Below are positions 1 to 54,587 of a stretch of 64,000 nucleotides of DNA, piece by piece. The notes under the pieces are model-generated. The model saw only the letters and a program-made list of their open reading frames with translations, was not told the origin of the DNA and did no database searches. The DNA is from Candidatus Lustribacter sp. (GTDB taxonomy: Bacteria > Vulcanimicrobiota > Vulcanimicrobiia > Vulcanimicrobiales > Vulcanimicrobiaceae): assembly GCA_965277805.1 (NCBI GenBank), contig OZ255842.1, positions 288,001 through 352,000 on the forward strand. The letters run 5' to 3'. How positions within the stretch are numbered: position 1 is the first letter of the stretch; every line of letters starts with the position of its first letter. Position numbers and translations under genes: made by a program.

Positions 1-39
1 CACGACCGGCACGCGCGGCGACGACAACCGCTTGCGCCA

Positions 40-46127: not shown

Positions 46128-46594
46128 GTCCGTGTATCCGCTCGTAACTGCCGCAAGAGTGCGGAGCGTTGCGCGCTCGTCGTGGTGTCGGGGTTCGATG
46201 GCCGCGGTGCCGCGCGCACGGCGCGGGTTCGCTCGTCGAGCACCTGCGTGAGGTAGGCGAGCGCCGCAGGCAGCGACGGTGCGCCGTCGTCGAATTGCCA
46301 CGTCGGGTCGATCGAGGTGCGCAAGTAATACCAGCCCTCGCGCTCGAGATGCGCGATGTCGGCGTTCGCATCGTCGCGCAGGCGGTCGCGCGCGAATCCG
46401 CAGATCAGCGCGCACTCGTTCTCGCCTTCGTTGAAGAGATCCAGGGCGAACACGAGATCGCGCTTCCCTTGATACGCGAGCGGCAAATCGCTGAAGATCA
46501 GCGCCACCGGATTGGGCAGCGCCGCGTTGAGCGCGGCATCGAAGGCATGTTCCAGCTCGGCTGTCCCGCGCTCGATGGCGTCGAGCTGCGTCAT
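46124..46594 (-). CDS. Hypothetical protein
   Basis: 156-aa ORF coupled by ATGA overlaps to both neighbours. Confidence 0.6.
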   Translation of the reverse strand: MTQLDAIERGTAELEHAFDAALNAALPNPVALIFSDLPLAYQGKRDLVFALDLFNEGENECALICGFARDRLRDDANADIAHLEREGWYYLRTSIDPTWQFDDGAPSLPAALAYLTQVLDERTRAVRAAPRPSNPDTTTSAQRSALLRQLRADTRT

Positions 46595-47376
46595 CCCAGC
46601 GTGATGGAGAGCATGCCCAGCCCATTGATGCCCGAGCCGTTGCCGCCGACGAGGATCGCCGGCTGCTCGTCGCTGCGCTGCAGCCCGAGGACCGAGAGAA
46701 ACGGCAGGTAGTGGTCGGGGGTCGGGATCGCCAGCTGCGCGTCGGGCCCGAGCTTCTCGTAGGCGATGAGGGCGGCATGATCGCCCGCGTCGAGACGTCG
46801 CATGAGATCGTCGCTGAAGCGCTGCTCCCAGCCGTCCGGTTCGGCCGGCCACGGATTGCGCCCGATCTCCTGATTGTGGATCACGTTGCCGCTGCCCACG
46901 ATGAGGACGCCTTCATCGCGCAAGGGCGCCAAGCGTGCGGCGAGTTCATAATGGAAGGACGGCGGCTGGGTTCGGTCGAGACTCAGTTCCACAACCGGCA
47001 CGTCGGCCGCGGGATAGAAGTTGGCGAGGACGTTCCAGGCGCCGTGATCATAGCCCCAATGCTCGTCCAGGGTGACGGGCACGGGGGCGAGCAGGTCGCG
47101 TACCCGCCGGGCCAGTGCCGGATCGCCGGGCGCCGGGTACTCAAAGGACGAGACCGCGCCCTTGAAGCTGATGAAGTCGTGGTTCGTCCGCGGGCGGGTA
47201 CCGGCGGTTACCCGGGTACCCGAGGTGTACCAATGCGCCGATATCAGGAGTACGGCCCGTGGCCGGACCCGGACCCCGAAGGCGCGCCAGGCATCGGTGA
47301 AGCGATTGCCGCCGAGGGCGTTCTGGGGGCTGCCGTGCCCGATGAAGGCGACGGGAAGGCGAGTTGACCGGTCCAC
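46591..47376 (-). CDS. ygiD: DODA-type (YgiD/LigB) extradiol dioxygenase
   Basis: FIGHGSP, SAHW, DHGAW, GSGNVIHN, PTPDHYLP. Confidence 0.88.
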   Translation of the reverse strand: MDRSTRLPVAFIGHGSPQNALGGNRFTDAWRAFGVRVRPRAVLLISAHWYTSGTRVTAGTRPRTNHDFISFKGAVSSFEYPAPGDPALARRVRDLLAPVPVTLDEHWGYDHGAWNVLANFYPAADVPVVELSLDRTQPPSFHYELAARLAPLRDEGVLIVGSGNVIHNQEIGRNPWPAEPDGWEQRFSDDLMRRLDAGDHAALIAYEKLGPDAQLAIPTPDHYLPFLSVLGLQRSDEQPAILVGGNGSGINGLGMLSITLG

Positions 47377-47393
47377 TTCCAACGTGGTATGCT
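47364..47393 (+). promoter_or_regulatory. Promoter of the cys operon
   Basis: TTGACC(47364-47369)-18 bp-TATGCT(47388-47393) with extended -10 TG; ATG 8 nt downstream. Confidence 0.7.
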
Positions 47394-47401
47394 CCCAAGC
47401 G

Positions 47402-47482
47402 ATGCGCTGTCCTTGTTGTTGTCCCGTTTTCGAGCCCACCTGTTGCCTTCCGGCAATCGGGCGGGGTGCTGCACTGGGCTGA
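47402..47482 (+). CDS. Cys-rich leader peptide MRCPCCCPVFEPTCCLPAIGRGAALG (attenuator uORF)
   Basis: 6 Cys codons in the first 15 codons, 5 of them TGT; lies directly upstream of a terminator and the sulfate assimilation operon. Confidence 0.8.
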   Translation: MRCPCCCPVFEPTCCLPAIGRGAALG

Positions 47483-47505
47483 GGGTGAACCCCCGAGACC
47501 AGCGT

Positions 47506-47539
47506 GCGACCCTCGCCTGAGCGGGGGTCGCTTTCATTT
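47506..47539 (+). terminator. Intrinsic terminator (attenuator) in the cys leader
   Basis: GCGACCCTCGC-CTGA-GCGGGGGTCGC followed by TTTCATTT. Confidence 0.8.
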
Positions 47540-47584
47540 CCAGCCAGCTCGGCACCCGAACGTACGGGGCCAGGAGTCCGACCC

Positions 47585-48256
47585 ATTTCCACCGATATCG
47601 CCGCCGCCGCCGGCCAAGCGAACGAAATCATCCGCCGCACGATCGAAGCCTATCCCGGCCGCACCACGCTGTCGTGCTCCTTCGGCGGTCCGTCGGGGAT
47701 GGTGCTGCTCGACCTGGCGTTGCGGATCGAACCGCAGCTCAACGTGTTCGTGGTCGACACCGAACTGTTGTTCCCGGAGACCTACGCGCTGATCGAGCGC
47801 GTCGAACGGCGTTACGGCATCAAGGTCGAGCGCGTGCACCCCGAGCAGACCGTTGAGGAACAAAACGCAACGCACGGTGACGCGCTCTGGAAGCGCGATC
47901 CCGACGCGTGCTGCGATCTGCGCAAGGTCGAGCCGCTGCGCGCGTATTTGCAACACTTCGACGCCTGGCTCACGGCCGTTCGGCGCGATCAGAGCGATAC
48001 GCGCACCGACCTTCCCATTCAGGCGTGGGATGAGAACGCCCAGATCGTGAAAGTGGCGCCGCTTGCGGAGTGGACCGAAGCCGACGTGTGGGGGTACGTG
48101 CAAGAGCACGACGTTCCGGTGAACACGCTGCACTTCGAAGGCTATCCGAGCATCGGCTGCATGCACTGCACGCGCCGCGTCGCCCCGGGCGAACACGCGC
48201 GTGCCGGCCGTTGGGCCGAGTTCGACAAAACGGAGTGCGGCATCCATGTCGCCTGA
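47585..48256 (+). CDS. cysH: APS reductase (Fe-S type CysH); probable ATT start
   Basis: SFGG, VDTELLFPETY, CC..RKVEPL, SIGCMHCT, ECGIH; AGGAG 8 nt before ATT 47585. Confidence 0.9.
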   Translation: MSTDIAAAAGQANEIIRRTIEAYPGRTTLSCSFGGPSGMVLLDLALRIEPQLNVFVVDTELLFPETYALIERVERRYGIKVERVHPEQTVEEQNATHGDALWKRDPDACCDLRKVEPLRAYLQHFDAWLTAVRRDQSDTRTDLPIQAWDENAQIVKVAPLAEWTEADVWGYVQEHDVPVNTLHFEGYPSIGCMHCTRRVAPGEHARAGRWAEFDKTECGIHVA

Positions 48257-49256
48257 GTACGCGGCCCCTACGGGTATCGCGCTCGAGAGCGTGAGCAAAC
48301 ACTTCGGCACCGTGCGCGCGGTCGACGGCGTTACGTTCGACGTTGCTCCGGGCTCGCTCACCGCGATTCTCGGGCCGTCCGGCTGTGGCAAGTCGACGCT
48401 CTTGCGTTTGCTGGCCGGCTTCGAACACGTCGATGCGGGTCACGTCACGCTCGGCGGCCGCGACGTGACGGACGTGCCCCTGCGCGAACGCAACATCGGG
48501 TTCGTCTTCCAAGGTTACGCGCTCTTTCCGCACTTGACGGTGGCGGAGAACATCGCGTTTCCGCTCGACGTGCGCAAGGCTGACCGCGCCAAGACGCGCG
48601 CCCGCGTTGCCGAGCTGCTGGATCTGGTGCAATTGCCGGGTTATGAGAAGCGCCGTCCGCACGAACTCTCCGGCGGTCAGCGCCAACGCGTCGCGCTCGC
48701 GCGGGCGCTGGCGGCGCAACCTGCCATCCTCTTGCTCGACGAACCGTTTGCGGCGCTCGACGTGCACGTGCGGCGCGATCTGCGTGCGTGGCTGCGCCGG
48801 CTGCACGACGACGTGCACGTGACCACGCTGCTCGTGACGCACGACGCCGACGAAGCGATGGAGATCGCGGATGCGCTCGTGCTGATGAACGCCGGCCGCG
48901 TGGAACAAGCCGGCAGCCCGCTCGACCTCTACGATCGTCCGGTGTCGCCGTTCGCATTGCACTTTCTCGGCCCGGCGAACATCATCGCCTCCGGCGGCAA
49001 CCCGCAGTACGTGCGGCCGCACGAGCTGCAGGTCGATTCGCATGCGTTCGACGGCTCGCAGCCGGCCCGCGTGTCGCGCATCGTCGATCTCGGGTCGCGG
49101 CGGCGGATCGACCTCGTCCTACCCGGCGGAGATCCGGTAAGCGCCGAAATCCGCGCGCCGTACAACGGTTTGAGCGCGGTGCGCGACGGCGATACCGTGC
49201 ACTTTGCGCTCGTTCATCAGCGGTCGTTCTCACCGACCTCACCTGAAAGGCCCTAG
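48246..49256 (+). CDS. cysA: Sulfate ABC transporter ATPase
   Basis: GPSGCGKST, LSGGQRQRVALARALA, LRAWLRRLHDDVHVTT. Confidence 0.92.
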   Translation: MSPEYAAPTGIALESVSKHFGTVRAVDGVTFDVAPGSLTAILGPSGCGKSTLLRLLAGFEHVDAGHVTLGGRDVTDVPLRERNIGFVFQGYALFPHLTVAENIAFPLDVRKADRAKTRARVAELLDLVQLPGYEKRRPHELSGGQRQRVALARALAAQPAILLLDEPFAALDVHVRRDLRAWLRRLHDDVHVTTLLVTHDADEAMEIADALVLMNAGRVEQAGSPLDLYDRPVSPFALHFLGPANIIASGGNPQYVRPHELQVDSHAFDGSQPARVSRIVDLGSRRRIDLVLPGGDPVSAEIRAPYNGLSAVRDGDTVHFALVHQRSFSPTSPERP

Positions 49257-49258
49257 CG

Positions 49259-50257
49259 TTGCGTTTCCTCCGCTCCATCGCCGCCGCCGTCTTCGTGGCG
49301 GGCGTAACGCTGCACGCCGCATCGGCCGCAACGCTGCTCAACGTATCGTACGATCCGACGCGCGAGCTGTATGCCGAGTACAACACGCTCTTCGCGAAGT
49401 ACTGGAAGCAGAAGACGGGCGAGGACGTGACGATCCAGCAGTCGCACAACAGTTCCGGCGCGCAGGCGCGTGCGGTCATCAGCGGCCTCGAAGCCGATGT
49501 CGTGACTCTGGCGCTCGCGGGCGACATCGATGCGATCTCGCAGAACGCGAAGTTGCTGCCGCCCGATTGGGCCAAGCGGCTGCCGCAAAATTCGACGCCG
49601 TACACGTCGACGATCGTGTTCCTCGTGCGCAAGGGCAACCCGAAGCACATCCATGACTGGAACGATCTGACGAAGCCCGGCGTCGGCGTCATCACCCCCA
49701 ACCCGAAGACCAGCGGCGCGGCGCGCTGGATCGTTCTGGCCGCGTATTCGTACGGCATGAAGAAGAACCAGAACAGCCAGGCCAAGACGCGCGCGCTGAT
49801 CGGCGCGATCTACAAGAACGCGCTCGTCCTCGATTCCGCCTCGCGCGCCTCGACGCTGACGTTCACCGAGCGCGGCCTCGGCGACGTGCTCGTCTCGTGG
49901 GAAAACGAAGCGATCCTGGCACAGCGCGATCATCCCAAAGATTACGAACTCGTCGTGCCTTCGGTGAGCGTGCTGGCCGAACCGCCGGTGGCGTGGATCG
50001 ACGTCAACGTCGCCAAACACCATACCGAGGCCGTCGCGAAAGCCTATCTCGAGTTTCTCTACACGCCGCAGGCGCAGCGCCTGGAGTGCAAGTGGGGCTA
50101 TCGCCCGCGCGATACCTCGGTGCTCGGGCACTGCGGCACATCGTTCCCGCGCACCGACCTGACGACGGTTGCGAGCTTCGGCGGCTGGCCGAACGCCAAC
50201 AAGGTGTTCTTCGCTGACGGCGCCCTGTTCGACCAGGTCTTCACCGCTCCGAAATGA
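49259..50257 (+). CDS. sbp: Sulfate-binding periplasmic protein
   Basis: LLNVSYDPTRELY, PYTSTIVFLVRKGNPK, NPKTSG, WENEA. Confidence 0.95.
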   Translation: MRFLRSIAAAVFVAGVTLHAASAATLLNVSYDPTRELYAEYNTLFAKYWKQKTGEDVTIQQSHNSSGAQARAVISGLEADVVTLALAGDIDAISQNAKLLPPDWAKRLPQNSTPYTSTIVFLVRKGNPKHIHDWNDLTKPGVGVITPNPKTSGAARWIVLAAYSYGMKKNQNSQAKTRALIGAIYKNALVLDSASRASTLTFTERGLGDVLVSWENEAILAQRDHPKDYELVVPSVSVLAEPPVAWIDVNVAKHHTEAVAKAYLEFLYTPQAQRLECKWGYRPRDTSVLGHCGTSFPRTDLTTVASFGGWPNANKVFFADGALFDQVFTAPK

Positions 50258-50264
50258 CCTCTCC

Positions 50265-51074
50265 ATGATTCCCGGACGCGGTGTTGCTCTAGCGACGACG
50301 ATGACGATCGTAGCGATCGTCGTCGTCGTTCCGCTTTCCGCGCTCGTGCTCTCGCTGCACGGGATCACGCCGGCAGGCTTCATCGCGACCGCGTTTTCGC
50401 CGGGAGCGCTCGCCGCGTACCGGCTCAGCTTCGGCGCGGCGATCCTCGCGTCGGCGATCGACGTCGTCGCCGGCGGTGCGATCGCGTTCGTGCTCGTGCG
50501 CTATCCCTCGGCCTGGATGCGCCCGTTCGACGCGCTCGTCGACGTGCCGTTCGCGTTGCCGCCGGCCGTTACCGGGATCACCTTGGCCGAGTTGTACGGG
50601 CAGCACGGCTGGATCGGCTCGTGGCTCGGCGCGCACGGCATCCAAATCGCTTATACGCCGGCCGGCGTGCTGCTCGCGCTCACGTTCGTCGGGCTGCCGT
50701 TCGTCGTGCGCACCGTGCAGCCGGTGATCGCCACCTTGCCGCGCGAGTACTCGCAAGCGGCAGCCTCGCTCGGCGCGCGGCCGTTCACGATCTTCCGCCG
50801 CATTACGCTGCCGCTGGTCGCGCCGTCGTTTCTCACCGGCTTCGCGCTGTCGCTCGCGCGCACGCTGGGCGAATACGGCTCGGTCATCTTCATCGCCGGC
50901 AACATGCCGGGCAAGACCGAGGTCATTCCGCTGATCGTGATCACGCGGCTCGAGCAATACGATTTCGCCGGCGCGGCGGCGGTGGCGCTGGTGTCGCTGT
51001 TCGTCTCGTTCGTCATGCTGTATGCAATCAACGCGCTGCAGCGCCGAATCGTCGACGTGCGGAGCGCGGCATGA
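50265..51074 (+). CDS. cysT: Sulfate ABC permease CysT (CysU)
   Basis: DVPFALP, LPFVVRTVQPV, GEYGSVIFIAGNMP.KTE. Confidence 0.92.
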   Translation: MIPGRGVALATTMTIVAIVVVVPLSALVLSLHGITPAGFIATAFSPGALAAYRLSFGAAILASAIDVVAGGAIAFVLVRYPSAWMRPFDALVDVPFALPPAVTGITLAELYGQHGWIGSWLGAHGIQIAYTPAGVLLALTFVGLPFVVRTVQPVIATLPREYSQAAASLGARPFTIFRRITLPLVAPSFLTGFALSLARTLGEYGSVIFIAGNMPGKTEVIPLIVITRLEQYDFAGAAAVALVSLFVSFVMLYAINALQRRIVDVRSAA

Positions 51075-51952
51075 CCGCGATCAACCTCGAACCGCTGGTG
51101 ACGCCGGTGCGCACGCGCGGGCACGCGGCCCGCTTGCATCTGTGGGAGCGCGCGGCGATCGGTGCCGTGGCGCTGTTGCTCGGCTTCTTCGTGTTCATAC
51201 CGCTGTGCTCGATCGTGTACGAAGCACTGCGCGCCGGTTTGCCGATGGCGGCGGCGACCTTCGCGGACCCGTACGCGCAGTCGGCGATCTGGCTCTCGGC
51301 GATTACCGCGGTGGTCACGATCGCGTGCAACGGTGCGTTCGGCATCCTCGCGGGCTGGACGCTCACCAAGTACTCGTTTCCCGGCAAAGCGCTGCTGCTC
51401 GCGATCATCGACTTGCCGTTGACGATCTCGCCGGTCGTCGCCGGGCTCGCGCTGCTGCTGGTGTTCGGGACGCGCTGGCCGGTCGGTGCGTGGTTCGAGG
51501 CGCACGGTATGCAGATCGCCTTCGCGCCGCCCGGGATTATCCTCGCGACGATCTTCGTCACGTTCCCGTACGTCGCGCGCGAAACGATCGCGCTGATGAG
51601 CGAGACGGGCCGCGAACTCGAGGAGGCGGCCCTTGGCCTCGGCGCAACGCTCTGGCAAACGTTCGCGCGCGTCACGTTCCCGCGGGCGCGTTGGGCCATC
51701 CTCAACGGCGTGCTGCTCTGCAACGCGCGGGCGCTCGGTGAGTTCGGCGCCGTCTCGGTCATCTCGGGCAACATCCGCGGCTTGACCAATACCGTCCCGT
51801 TGCACATCGACGTGCTCTACAATAGCTACAACCTCGTCGGCGCGTTCACATTGGCCGGCGCGCTGGCGCTCGTGACGATCACCCTCACCTTCATCCGTAC
51901 CACCATCGACGCCCGCATGCATCAGCGGACCAACATAGAAACGAGAAACTGA
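51071..51952 (+). CDS. cysW: Sulfate ABC permease CysW
   Basis: DLPLTISPVVAG, LCNARALGEFGAVSVISG.IRG.TNT.PL. Confidence 0.92.
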   Translation: MTAINLEPLVTPVRTRGHAARLHLWERAAIGAVALLLGFFVFIPLCSIVYEALRAGLPMAAATFADPYAQSAIWLSAITAVVTIACNGAFGILAGWTLTKYSFPGKALLLAIIDLPLTISPVVAGLALLLVFGTRWPVGAWFEAHGMQIAFAPPGIILATIFVTFPYVARETIALMSETGRELEEAALGLGATLWQTFARVTFPRARWAILNGVLLCNARALGEFGAVSVISGNIRGLTNTVPLHIDVLYNSYNLVGAFTLAGALALVTITLTFIRTTIDARMHQRTNIETRN

Positions 51953-51954
51953 CC

Positions 51955-52749
51955 GTGGATTCCCTCGATCGGCTGGAAGCCGAAACCATCACGATCTTGC
52001 GCGAGGCCTACCGGGCCAGCAGTAAGCCCTGCATGCTGTGGTCGATCGGCAAAGATTCGACCGCGCTCTTGTGGATGGCGCGCAAAGCCTTCCTGGGCCG
52101 CGTTCCGTTTCCGATGGTCTTGCTCGAAACGTTCATGGAATTGCCCGAGGTGTACGAATTCCGCGATCGTCTGATCGACGAGTGGCAACTCGAGTACTTC
52201 GCGCAGATCTGTCCGCCGGAGAGCGAAGTCGATCAGACGCTGCCGCCGGCAACGCGCGCCGCCGCACGCAAGACCGAAGGCCTGCGCACGATGCTGCGCG
52301 AGCAGAAGTTCGACGCCGTGATGGTCGGCATCCGGCGTGACGAGCAGGCGATGCGCGCGAAGGAACGCGTGTTTAGCCCGCGCCGCATCGACGGCACGTG
52401 GGACGTGAAAGAGCAGCCCCCGGAGTTCTGGGGCTACTACACGACCAGCGTGCCGGACGGCGCGCACCTGCGCGTGCATCCGCTCCTGTCGTGGACCGAA
52501 CTCGACATTTGGGAGTATACGCTGCGCGAGAACATCCCGTACGTCCCGCTCTACCTCGCGCGCGACGGCAAACGCTATCGCTCGCTGGGCGAGAAGAACA
52601 TCACCGTGCCGATCGACAGCAACGCATCGACGATCGAAGAGATCATCGCCGAGCTGCGAGCGACGCGCGTGCCCGAACGGGCCGGCCGCACGATGGATAA
52701 CGAGAGCGAAGCCTCGTTCGAACGCCTGCGCGCGGGAGGGTACATGTAA
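51955..52749 (+). CDS. cysD: Sulfate adenylyltransferase subunit 2
   Basis: [12 protein letters not shown]...[21 protein letters not shown]. Confidence 0.93.
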
Positions 52750-54587
52750 TGGACCTGCGCGTAGCGATTACCGGTCACGTCGACCATGGCAAGTCCACGC
52801 TCATCGGGCGTCTGCTCTACGATACCGGCAGCTTGGCCGACGGCAAGGCCGAAGAAATCATCGCTTCGAGCGAACGCCGCGGCCTCGCGGTCGAGTGGTC
52901 GTTCGCGGTCGATGCGGCGCAAGAAGAGCGCGATCAAGCGATCACGATCGAAACGACCCGCGTTTGGATGCACTACGGCGGGCGGCGCATCGTGATCATC
53001 GATACGCCCGGCCATCGCGAGTTCATCCGTAACATGATGAGCGGCGCGGCCGACGCCGACGCCGGCATCCTCGTGATCGATGCGCTGGAAGGGATCGCCG
53101 ATCAAACCTATCGTCATGCTTACCTGCTGCGTTTGCTCGACGTACCGGAGATCATCGTCGCGGTCAACAAGATCGACGCGGTCGAAAATCCGGCCGAGCG
53201 TTTCGCGCAGATCAGCCGCGACATCCGCTCGGTGCTCGAGACCGCGGGCAAACCGTTGCGCGCGATCGTGCCGCTCTCGGCCCGCGACGGCGACAACGTC
53301 GTCAATCGTTCGGAGCGTACCGCATGGTACACCGGCCCGACCCTCATCGACGTTCTCGTCTCGCTGCATCCGGTCGCGCCGCTGGCCGACCGCCCGCTGC
53401 GCTTCGAAGTGGCCGACGTCTACCGGTTTAGCGACGAAGAGCGCATCTCGGTCGGCAACGTGGTAGCCGGCACGATCGCGCCCGGCGATCGCGTGCGCAT
53501 CGCGCCCAGCGGCGCAACCACGCGCGTGCGCGGCATCAAGCGTTGGCCCGACGATCCCTCGCCCGCGCTCGCGGGCCAAGCCGTCGGCCTCACCTTCGAT
53601 GATCCCGTGTTCATCGATCGCGGCGACATCGTCACTCACGCCGACCGTCCGCCGCTCGTCGCGACCACGTCGTTCGACGGCGTCTTCTTCTGGCTTTCGG
53701 AGGCGCCGCCGCGGGTCGGCGAGACGCTGTCGATCAAGATCGGCCGCGCTGAAGTTGCGGTGACGATCATCGGCATCGACGAGACGATCGATCTAGGCAT
53801 TCTCGACAAAGTTCAGCCCGATGAATCATCCAAGCATTCGGCGTTCGCCCTGCGCCTGCGCGCGGCGCGCACGGTTGCGGCCGAACCGGGCGCGCGCTGT
53901 GTGCTGCTGCGCACGGGCGAAGTCGTCGGCGGGGGCAAGCTTTCCACCGTCGAGCCGGTCAGCTCGCAGCGATCGGATAACCTCGTACCGCAAGGCCATC
54001 TGATCTCGCGCGAAACGCGCGCGCATCGCAACGGCTATCGCGGTTTGGTCGCCTGGCTCACCGGTTTGCCGGGCAGCGGCAAGTCGACGATTGCGATGGC
54101 GGTCGAACGCGAGCTGTTTGCGCGCGGCTATTTCGTCTACGTGCTTGACGGCGACAACGTGCGGACCGGGCTCAATCGCGATCTCGGTTTCACGCGCGAA
54201 GGACGTCAGGAAAACATCCGGCGCATCGGCGAGGTGGCGGCGCTGTTCGCCGACGCCGGCGCGATCGTCATCACCGGCACGATCTCGCCGCACGCAGCCG
54301 ATCGTGCCGCCGCGCGCGCGGCGGCGCCCGGCTCGTTTCACGAGATCTACGTGCGCGCGAGCGTCGATACGTGCGCGACCCGCGACGTGAAGGGTCACTA
54401 CGCGAAAGCGCGCGCCGGCGAGCTGCCCGACTTCACCGGCGTTTCAGCGCCCTACGAAGAGCCCGAGCACCCCGACTTGCTGGTGGACACTAACGCCTCA
54501 ACGATCGAAGCCAGCGTGTCCTCCGTGGTCGAGTACCTGATCCGCGCCGCCACCGCTCCCGAGGTACTCCTCAGCTACTCGATTTAA
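52749..54587 (+). CDS. cysNC: Fused sulfate adenylyltransferase subunit 1 / APS kinase
   Basis: [18 protein letters not shown] GTPase domain; [28 protein letters not shown] kinase domain. Confidence 0.93.

Follow-up and report, generated by a model that had tools for sequence, protein, structure and literature searches.

How is sulfate assimilation controlled in an uncultured soil bacterium whose operon for it is preceded by a string of cysteine codons and a hairpin? The question is raised by a 64,000-nucleotide (nt) stretch of the genome (5.53 Mb) of Candidatus Lustribacter sp., contig OZ255842.1, positions 288,001 to 352,000, which is called the window below and whose coordinates are used unless another sequence is named. 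Here the genes cysH-cysA-sbp-cysT-cysW-cysD-cysNC follow a short open reading frame (sORF) rich in Cys codons, and an initial annotation had proposed that the two are linked by trp/his-type attenuation. The closest named relatives of cysH (92–94% identity) are metagenome-assembled genomes (MAGs) labelled Vulcanimicrobiota or Candidatus Eremiobacteraeota, and we know of no work on gene regulation in Eremiobacterota. We consider it probable that cysH-cysA-sbp-cysTW-cysD-cysNC is gated by a leader-peptide transcription attenuator, mediated by the ribosome and sensitive to charged tRNA-Cys. The proposed model was supported in that every element is present at the locus and conserved in relatives. 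The elements are as follows.

47364..47393, forward strand: promoter, with -35 TTGACC at 47364-47369, an 18-nt spacer, an extended -10 TG at 47385-86 and -10 TATGCT at 47388-47393.
47402..47482, forward strand: leader sORF of 26 codons plus TGA at 47480-82, reading MRCPCCCPVFEPTCCLPAIGRGAALG.
47442..47457, forward strand: hairpin 1:2 (anti-antiterminator), GTTGCC-TTCC-GGCAAT, whose 5' arm is formed by the last Cys-Cys codons; present in the minimum free energy (MFE) fold.
47459..47486, forward strand: predicted antiterminator 5' strand (segment 2), of which 47461-47469 pairs with 47506-47516; an alternative, 47477-47486, spans the stop codon.
47506..47539, forward strand: predicted intrinsic terminator, stem 47506-47531 followed by the T tract TTTCATTT at 47532-47539.
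47572..47587, forward strand: ribosome-binding site (RBS) and start of cysH, with AGGAG at 47572-76, an 8-nt spacer and an ATT start codon at 47585-87.

The promoter (TTGACC-18-TGnTATGCT) and the ATG at 47402 without an RBS match the window in coordinates and letters, and the segments to which the initial annotation had assigned alternative pairings (47435-47447, 47452-47465, 47459-47469, 47477-47486 and 47506-47517) read exactly as claimed. Between 46800 and 48000 the site at 47364 was the only sigma-70-like match (shuffled sequences gave a mean of 0.1), and its geometry was repeated in all 16 sORF-positive loci first examined and in 10 further loci. The -10 element ends 8 nt before ATG 47402, a distance of 6–9 nt in all relatives that carry the unit, and there is therefore no room for a Shine-Dalgarno (SD) sequence. 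Promoter geometry, which is the sole basis here, suggests that the leader transcript is leaderless and starts at or a few bases from ATG 47402; of the leaderless start claimed earlier, the arrangement of promoter and ATG stands and the word leaderless is a deduction from it.

Six of the 26 sORF codons encode Cys (47408-10, 47414-22 and 47441-46, giving the runs CCC and CC). The reading frame and the count of five TGT codons and one TGC agree with the initial annotation, and the preference of the genome for C-ending codons was borne out: TGT accounts for 15.8% of its Cys codons (1725 of 10887 in 1877 long open frames rich in G or C at the third codon position), compared with 103 of 138 over 32 listed sORFs of this type. 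Since the genome has a single tRNA-Cys gene, with anticodon GCA, TGT codons are read by wobble. These rare codons probably sharpen the sensor; a structural cause of the bias, namely U-rich and weakly pairing RNA, is also compatible with the codon counts. Relatives carry Cys-rich sORFs of 19–27 codons at the equivalent position. They start with ATG in 30 of 31 leaders (GTG in one), the last Cys lies 7–12 codons ahead of the stop in 28 of 29, and Cys makes up 121 of the 656 in-frame codons in 29 non-redundant leaders, the other two frames giving 50 and 22.

The hairpin that was claimed to terminate transcription was confirmed as an 11-bp stem with nine GC pairs (-21.8 kcal/mol) followed by the T tract. 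It cannot serve to terminate an upstream gene, because the leader lies in a divergent intergenic region. Of 31 leaders, 30 have a hairpin and a T-rich tail behind the sORF. Perfect 8-bp GC-rich hairpins with a T run occur 70 times in terminator orientation and 14 times in the mirror orientation in the genome, which on this count uses intrinsic terminators of this type. The 146-nt leader folds better than shuffled sequences (z = -2.33), and its MFE structure contains both hairpin 1:2 and the terminator. In L001, L019 and L020 the stem of hairpin 1:2 is retained and the loop altered. Rfam, searched between 46800 and 48000 at permissive thresholds (E up to 10), gave four chance-level matches and no riboswitch or leader family. 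As a separate observation, L024, L028, L032, L042, L044, L045, L047 and L058 share a conserved GCGCGC a few bases beyond the sORF stop, for which pairing with the terminal CGGCG of the sORF is predicted (columns 68-71 with 81-84 of alignment A1); the antiterminator may face competition from this additional helix.

For comparison, 401 genomes of the phylum were searched with CysH, and the 30 best loci and 27 more were taken, 57 in all; two matches from genomes flagged as unpublished were excluded. Labels L001–L089 denote the cysH or related leader loci examined, among which L001 and L002 nearly duplicate the leader of the study locus and have an identical terminator. The unit, consisting of the promoter, an sORF of 19–27 codons with at least three Cys, and a hairpin with a U tract, lies directly upstream of cysH at 27 of the 57 loci. 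A strict pattern (TTGACN, 16–19 nt, TANNN[T/A], 6–9 nt, and an ATG or GTG start of an sORF that has three or more Cys) was found at 14 of the first 30 loci, the study locus included, and at 10 of the next 27; the total of 27 also takes in L022, with four non-adjacent Cys, and L059 and L073, with a weaker -35. At most of the 'negative' loci cysH sits behind another gene. Fourteen regions further upstream were fetched, and in six of them the unit stands before the first gene (sulfite reductase in five, cysK in one). The Cys-rich frames that one would look for upstream of cys operons in relatives were thus found at 33 of 57 loci in 19 genera of one family, with the architecture kept and the sequence diverged. 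In the DNA fetched for the remaining eight (the operons L082-84 and L086-89, which begin with a TauE-like gene, and L079, which is cut by a contig end) the unit was not found, a result that differs from absence. The cysH loci L060 and L074, which lie outside the family, have no unit.

Two candidates were left uncounted. L050 has only two separated Cys codons, and L072 (G011) looks like a decayed copy: its leader resembles those of L024 and L028 in the shared start, in ...GATACGGCGTAG and in the terminator, with a single Cys codon and a frame that passes the usual stop, and is possibly a decayed attenuator. The sir-cysH leaders L076, L077 and L080 of genus g2 have two to three Cys codons interleaved with Met (for example ...RCLMMVC... 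and ...CCLSMMQC...) and may respond to both sulfur amino acids.

A promoter-like site, a short open reading frame and a hairpin might also meet by chance in GC-rich intergenic DNA, which yields many open reading frames and stems; the 219-nt stretch that reaches into cysH folds no better than shuffled sequences (z = -0.28). This explanation is scarcely credible in view of an ordered set of elements that recurs at 33 loci in divergent sequence, and of a combination of promoter, start and sORF that is rare genome-wide.

If the pairings matter, segment 2 should fit the terminator arm of its own locus better than those of other loci. Over 27 loci the mean pairing energy was -18.06 kcal/mol with the own arm and -15.63 kcal/mol across loci, and 0 of 20000 permutations reached so low a value. 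When each genus was represented by a single locus (18 loci), the values were -18.21 and -15.96 kcal/mol (4 of 20000 permutations as low), and the same own-versus-cross comparison for the 1:2 pairing, again with one locus per genus, gave 69 of 20000. Matched changes in segment 2 and terminator arm include GGTGAGG/CCTCACC (L046), GGCGTGG/CCACGCC (L065), GACGAGGC/GCCTCGTC (L073) and CGAGCGAG/CTCGCTCG (a second locus). An alignment of 12 sequences shows pairing in 83.3% of the cells of the antiterminator helix, compared with 18–49% when the helix is slid. Hairpin 1:2 and the terminator are paired in 84.2%, with none of 500 shuffles reaching their covariation score, and helix P1 is paired in 77.8%, with four of its six pairs changed on both sides. 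The covarying stems expected in relatives are therefore supported by the own-versus-cross tests and by the alignment, the covariation of the antiterminator being modest.

The same strand bears on the proposal that the sORF makes a functional small Cys-rich peptide, metal- or redox-active or a precursor, with the hairpin as its terminator and cysH transcribed from elsewhere. Recurrent C-terminal residues among the loci (…GRGAALG, …RGSA) would fit such a peptide, but it is at these recurring codons that the RNA pairs with the terminator arm. The residues besides Cys vary freely, even inside the genus (V/A, E/K, P/A, L/R), there is no promoter-like site from the hairpin to cysH, and the unit is tied to sulfur genes of three kinds. 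We regard a functional peptide as very unlikely.

The locus thus has a Cys-enriched leader frame, a terminator before the first gene, an antiterminator that by computation engages the 5' arm of the terminator, and a hairpin 1:2 that overlaps Cys codons. From these elements, their conservation and their complementarity we infer the following course of events. Transcription would start at or near ATG 47402, and a 70S ribosome would translate the 26-codon leader as RNA polymerase proceeds. When cysteine is plentiful, the ribosome would reach TGA 47480 and cover segment 2 (47459-47486), the hairpin 47506-47531 with its U tract would form, and transcription would end near 47535-47540. When Cys-tRNA is scarce, the ribosome would stall while decoding the Cys-Cys pair at 47441-47446 and would cover segment 1; segment 2, set free, would pair with the terminator 5' arm 47506-47516, the terminator would be blocked and the polymerase would read into cysH. 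In the absence of translation, segments 1:2 would pair with upstream sequence, segment 2 would be sequestered and the terminator would form.

Folding with a ribosome footprint placed at the Cys codons or at the stop agreed with the attenuator model at the study locus and in 17 of 18 leaders. In these calculations the RNA was masked from its 5' end to 13 nt beyond the A-site codon and the remainder was folded, for the 18 leaders in which a terminator had been detected (16 cysH leaders, L001 and L002 included, and two further units of the same genome that are described below). At the study locus, a ribosome whose A site holds the last Cys-Cys lets 47461-47469 pair with 47506-47516 in a structure of -26.9 kcal/mol before the 3' arm of the terminator has been made; with the ribosome at the stop the terminator alone remains, and without a ribosome the terminator forms. 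Of the two antiterminators that had been proposed, the folds thus choose the first, 47459-47469. Occupancy of the terminator 5' arm before synthesis of the 3' arm was 0.81 on the last Cys-Cys compared with 0.52 at the stop and 0.66 without a ribosome, and this result was stable for footprints of 9–17 nt. Over the 18 leaders the 5' arm is already paired upstream to 65–100% on the last Cys-Cys (54% in L045) and to 18–61% at the stop, and the value on the last Cys-Cys exceeds those at the stop and without a ribosome in all leaders except L047. There the last Cys-Cys value (65) is not above that without a ribosome (listed as 0.58) or those of early codons (67–69), and occupancy climbs to 79 solely at a later single Cys codon.

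Several observations weigh against this interpretation. The Cys enrichment of the positive loci is partly circular, because the locus search required Cys codons. The T tract TTTCATTT is interrupted, and L022 lacks a good one. The antiterminator core CGGCG/CGCCG is invariant in the 12-sequence group, and the covariation of this helix is reached by 15 of 500 shuffles. Part of the drop in arm occupancy with ribosome advance is trivial, as the RNA available for pairing becomes shorter. At equilibrium, with the full leader and the ribosome on the last Cys-Cys, P(terminator) at the study locus ranges from 0.24 to 1.0 depending on the footprint. It stays above 0.8 in about 8 of the 18 leaders, and the scan shows a distinct drop where the Cys codons lie in about 10 of them, with none in L019, L020, L024, L028, L040, L042, L045 and the minus-strand unit of L048. 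The co-transcriptional measure was relied on for this reason, and since the terminator often wins at equilibrium the model depends on kinetic trapping. For a ribosome halted at codons 5-7, the first Cys run, termination is predicted to stay intact at the study locus (P = 0.99), so that the model does not account for this run. The sir and cysK genes of the study genome, searched for a leader, have no Cys sORF. Finally, the RNA-library contigs considered below give no information on strand, starts or ends, and may include DNA.

A stalled ribosome could also act on translation, as in mycobacteria, by unmasking the cysH RBS, in which case the hairpin would be structural or a pause site. Ms5788A, the sole experimentally characterised poly-Cys leaderless sORF according to the accessible part of the report, acts translationally (10.1101/834739), and in the MFE fold of 47402-47620 three of the five SD bases are paired in a small local hairpin. 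However, this hairpin spans 47547-47577 only and its folding is thus independent of the position of the leader ribosome. The SD at 47572-76 lies 40 nt beyond the terminator hairpin, the distance between the two varies from ~10 to ~70 nt among loci, and a GC-rich stem with a T tract is kept in 30 of 31 leaders, which masking of an SD would not require. We therefore consider translational attenuation improbable.

The start of cysH itself appears to be unusual. At the study locus no in-frame ATG, GTG or TTG lies between the terminator and the conserved CysH N-terminus, and an apparent ATT or ATC start 6–8 nt past AGGAG(G) was found in 12 of 30 loci; loci of this type include L019, L020, L024, L032, L044, L047, L050, L051 and L062. 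L019, L024 and L032 have no in-frame ATG, GTG or TTG from the upstream in-frame stop to the conserved N-terminus, and the conserved region already includes the first canonical codon of L051 and L062. GTG 47504 was rejected as the cysH start: it sits at the base of the terminator stem without an SD, and it cannot be a shared start because L019 has no such codon before the conserved N-terminus. Such a weak initiation codon might add another level of regulation; alternatively, members of this family may often use non-canonical starts.

The promoter carries one more element that has to be weighed.

47364..47375, no strand assigned: candidate operator TTGACCGGTCCA, one mismatch from the palindrome TGGACCGGTCCA, overlapping the -35.

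The perfect 12-mer TGGACCGGTCCA has two copies in the 5.53-Mb genome (G000:C1 2939911 and 5382623), one in the cysK promoter region and the other in the spacer of the sulfite reductase promoter, and TTGACCGGTCCA is kept in the genus relatives L019, L020 and L022. The palindrome is a candidate operator for a sulfur-responsive regulator. Initiation might then be controlled by a repressor at TGGACCGGTCCA-like sites, with the sORF and hairpin acting as a constitutive partial terminator or RNA-stability element. The occurrence of the perfect palindrome only at the cysK and sulfite reductase promoters, and of the one-mismatch copy over the -35 of the study promoter, speaks for such control. Yet the palindrome is restricted to the genus, whereas the unit of Cys-codon sORF and terminator is kept in 18 other genera without it, and a constitutive terminator leaves the Cys codons, the TGT bias and the matched changes of segment 2 and arm unexplained. 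As a replacement for the attenuator, repressor control is slightly less plausible still than translational attenuation; palindrome control and the attenuator likely coexist.

The genome contains further units. Ten open reading frames of 8–45 residues stand behind TTGACN-16..19-TANNNT-6..9-RTG in 5.53 Mb, and four of the ten have at least three Cys. Among sORFs behind a -10 and a start, those with poly-Cys number 3 of 17 when the -35 agrees at five or more of six positions and 16 of 1193 with a weaker -35. Three of the strongest cases of the strict pattern are each a poly-Cys sORF followed by a terminator, and all three are counted as standing before sulfur genes. Two of these leaderless-type units face each other, divergent and back-to-back, at ~2.2125 Mb (L048 5864-6204, that is G000:C1 about 2212363-2212703). 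One, MSARRFVCTCPCCLAGNERALFVM with its terminator, lies ahead of genes for an SsuA-like binding protein, two permeases and an ATPase; its SsuA family score is under the curated cut-off, and the substrate of the transporter is therefore not assigned. The other, MSFVNRCCCAETVRRSGVMLV with its terminator, precedes a 531-residue flavin adenine dinucleotide flavoprotein and then a Rieske/LigXa-like oxygenase. Two other matches with Cys-containing sORFs, at 2312471(-) and 5236479(+), may be due to chance.

The gene order given in the initial annotation was borne out by Pfam and NCBIfam.

47585..48256, forward strand: cysH, phosphoadenylyl-sulfate/adenylyl-sulfate (APS) reductase (PF01507, 1e-50; NF002537, 261 bits, cut-off 154).
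48246..49256, forward strand: cysA, sulfate ATP-binding cassette (ABC) transporter ATPase (TIGR00968, 348.2 bits, cut-off 342.75); ATG 48246 is the presumed start.
49259..50257, forward strand: sbp, sulfate-binding protein (NF008022, 418.8 bits, cut-off 288).
50265..51074, forward strand: cysT, permease (TIGR02139, 312.7 bits, cut-off 246.1), with a presumed start.
51071..51952, forward strand: cysW, permease (TIGR00969, 261 bits, cut-off 240), with a presumed start.
51955..52749, forward strand: cysD, sulfate adenylyltransferase small subunit (NF003587, 312 bits, cut-off 195).
52749..54587, forward strand: cysNC, sulfate adenylyltransferase large subunit fused to APS kinase (PF00009 and PF01583).

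CysW scores 290.6 bits with the CysW equivalog, under the cut-off of 329.1, and CysNC 520.9 bits with NF004035, under the cut-off of 715. The upstream neighbour is divergent and lies outside the switch.

46591..47376, reverse strand: 4,5-DOPA extradiol dioxygenase-like gene, LigB family (PF02900).

It scores 274 bits with NF007914 (cut-off 233), aligned from residue 4, and its likely GTG start at 47376 falls within the promoter spacer. Two runs, of two studies, yielded identical 210-nt RNA-library contigs (window 47210-47395) that stop precisely at 47395 on the dioxygenase side, with no loose end, a weak hint that the 5' end of the dioxygenase gene transcript lies ~19 nt upstream of GTG 47376. 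Four metatranscriptome runs hold parts of the window as contigs (shares 0.05–0.08) from relatives at 90–96% identity; parts left uncovered carry no meaning. Two of the contigs (95–96% identity) bridge the terminator into cysH, X2 over 47451-47633 and X1, which carries 50 further upstream letters, over 47483-47659. They are compatible with read-through transcripts, as contigs that show neither strand, ends nor level.

Taken over the family, the data allow a wider proposal, which we hold to be quite possible though short of probable. A family of Eremiobacterota may have independently evolved a cysteine 'ribulon' that acts by termination, with cassettes at no fewer than five kinds of sulfur operon (cysH-sulfate transporter-cysDNC, sir-cysH, cysK-cysH, an SsuA-like transporter and a flavoprotein gene), tuned by rare UGU codons and, in the genus, layered with the cysK/sir palindrome and a weak AUU/AUC start of cysH. 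The unit provides a regulatory annotation for the MAGs of this family and indirect evidence for leaderless translation and intrinsic termination in Eremiobacterota. It would also be a compact natural cysteine sensor, open to study in a cell-free coupled system.

Control of cysteine synthesis and sulfate assimilation is known from the proteins CysB and CymR and from S-box and T-box RNAs, and classical attenuators are represented by trpL, hisL, leuL, thrL and pheL of E. coli and Salmonella. With the latter the study unit shares a leader reading frame rich in codons for the end-product, the exclusive pairings 1:2, 2:3 and 3:4, a terminator before the first gene and a fold decided by the position of the ribosome. 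Unlike them, it would sense cysteine, its leader frame has no SD and apparently lies at the 5' end of the mRNA, and it is found in Eremiobacterota, repeated at several sulfur operons and without sequence relationship.

The initial annotation had suggested, with reserve, that a terminator-based version in this apparently non-actinobacterial genome looked undescribed. This was too broad, since the available portions of the literature describe both a leaderless leader with a terminator (PMC8079986) and a Cys-Cys upstream frame with a terminator (PMC8632094); what stands is that our full-text literature searches turned up no description of a unit of this kind, either upstream of an operon for sulfate assimilation or in Eremiobacterota. 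In the sections at hand, ilvL of Streptomyces lividans is given as a case of leaderless leader peptides with Rho-independent terminators (PMC8079986), and Rho-independent attenuation with a leaderless leader peptide is discussed for ilvBNC of Corynebacterium glutamicum (PMC11857589). These actinobacterial systems have in common with ours a leader peptide from a leaderless transcript, hairpins and a U-rich tract, and as far as these sections go they sense branched-chain or other amino acids, not cysteine. The upstream frame uORFC-8-2 of Rhodobacterales, located before cysS, is a predicted Cys-sensing transcription attenuator (PMC8632094). It shares the tandem Cys codons (usually at positions 14-15, as here), stems that include Cys codons and a terminal U run; it differs in that it precedes a tRNA synthetase gene, where the gene downstream of our unit is cysH, belongs to alpha-proteobacteria, is a prediction only and is not stated to be leaderless in the text available. 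Candidate Cys leader peptides before cys/cbs operons of Mycobacterium, Propionibacterium acnes and Bifidobacterium longum (PMC1262725) resemble ours as short frames with Cys-codon runs near the stop upstream of cysteine operons, but in the accessible text they are without conserved terminator hairpins and a Rho-dependent mechanism is suggested.

Closest in outline is the mycobacterial Cys ribulon, for which the accessible part of the report describes that a stalled ribosome on Ms5788A frees a sequestered RBS and leaves open whether other Cys sORF loci use transcriptional or translational attenuation (10.1101/834739). Going by that part, both systems have a leaderless or leaderless-type sORF with at least two consecutive Cys codons upstream of cysteine or sulfur operons, and several units per genome that act independently with a common dependence on Cys-tRNA. 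The origin is probably independent, since the two systems belong to different phyla and the sequences do not align with those of mycobacterial sORFs. The sequestration of an RBS that characterises Ms5788A was not found here, as 40 nt separate the hairpin from the SD, which does not depend on how the leader folds. Unlike Ms5788A, the study unit has a conserved intrinsic terminator and an antiterminator, which point to transcription termination. What appears to be new is thus a terminator-based Cys leader peptide before the assimilation operon itself, by a mechanism that remains that of the textbook attenuators.

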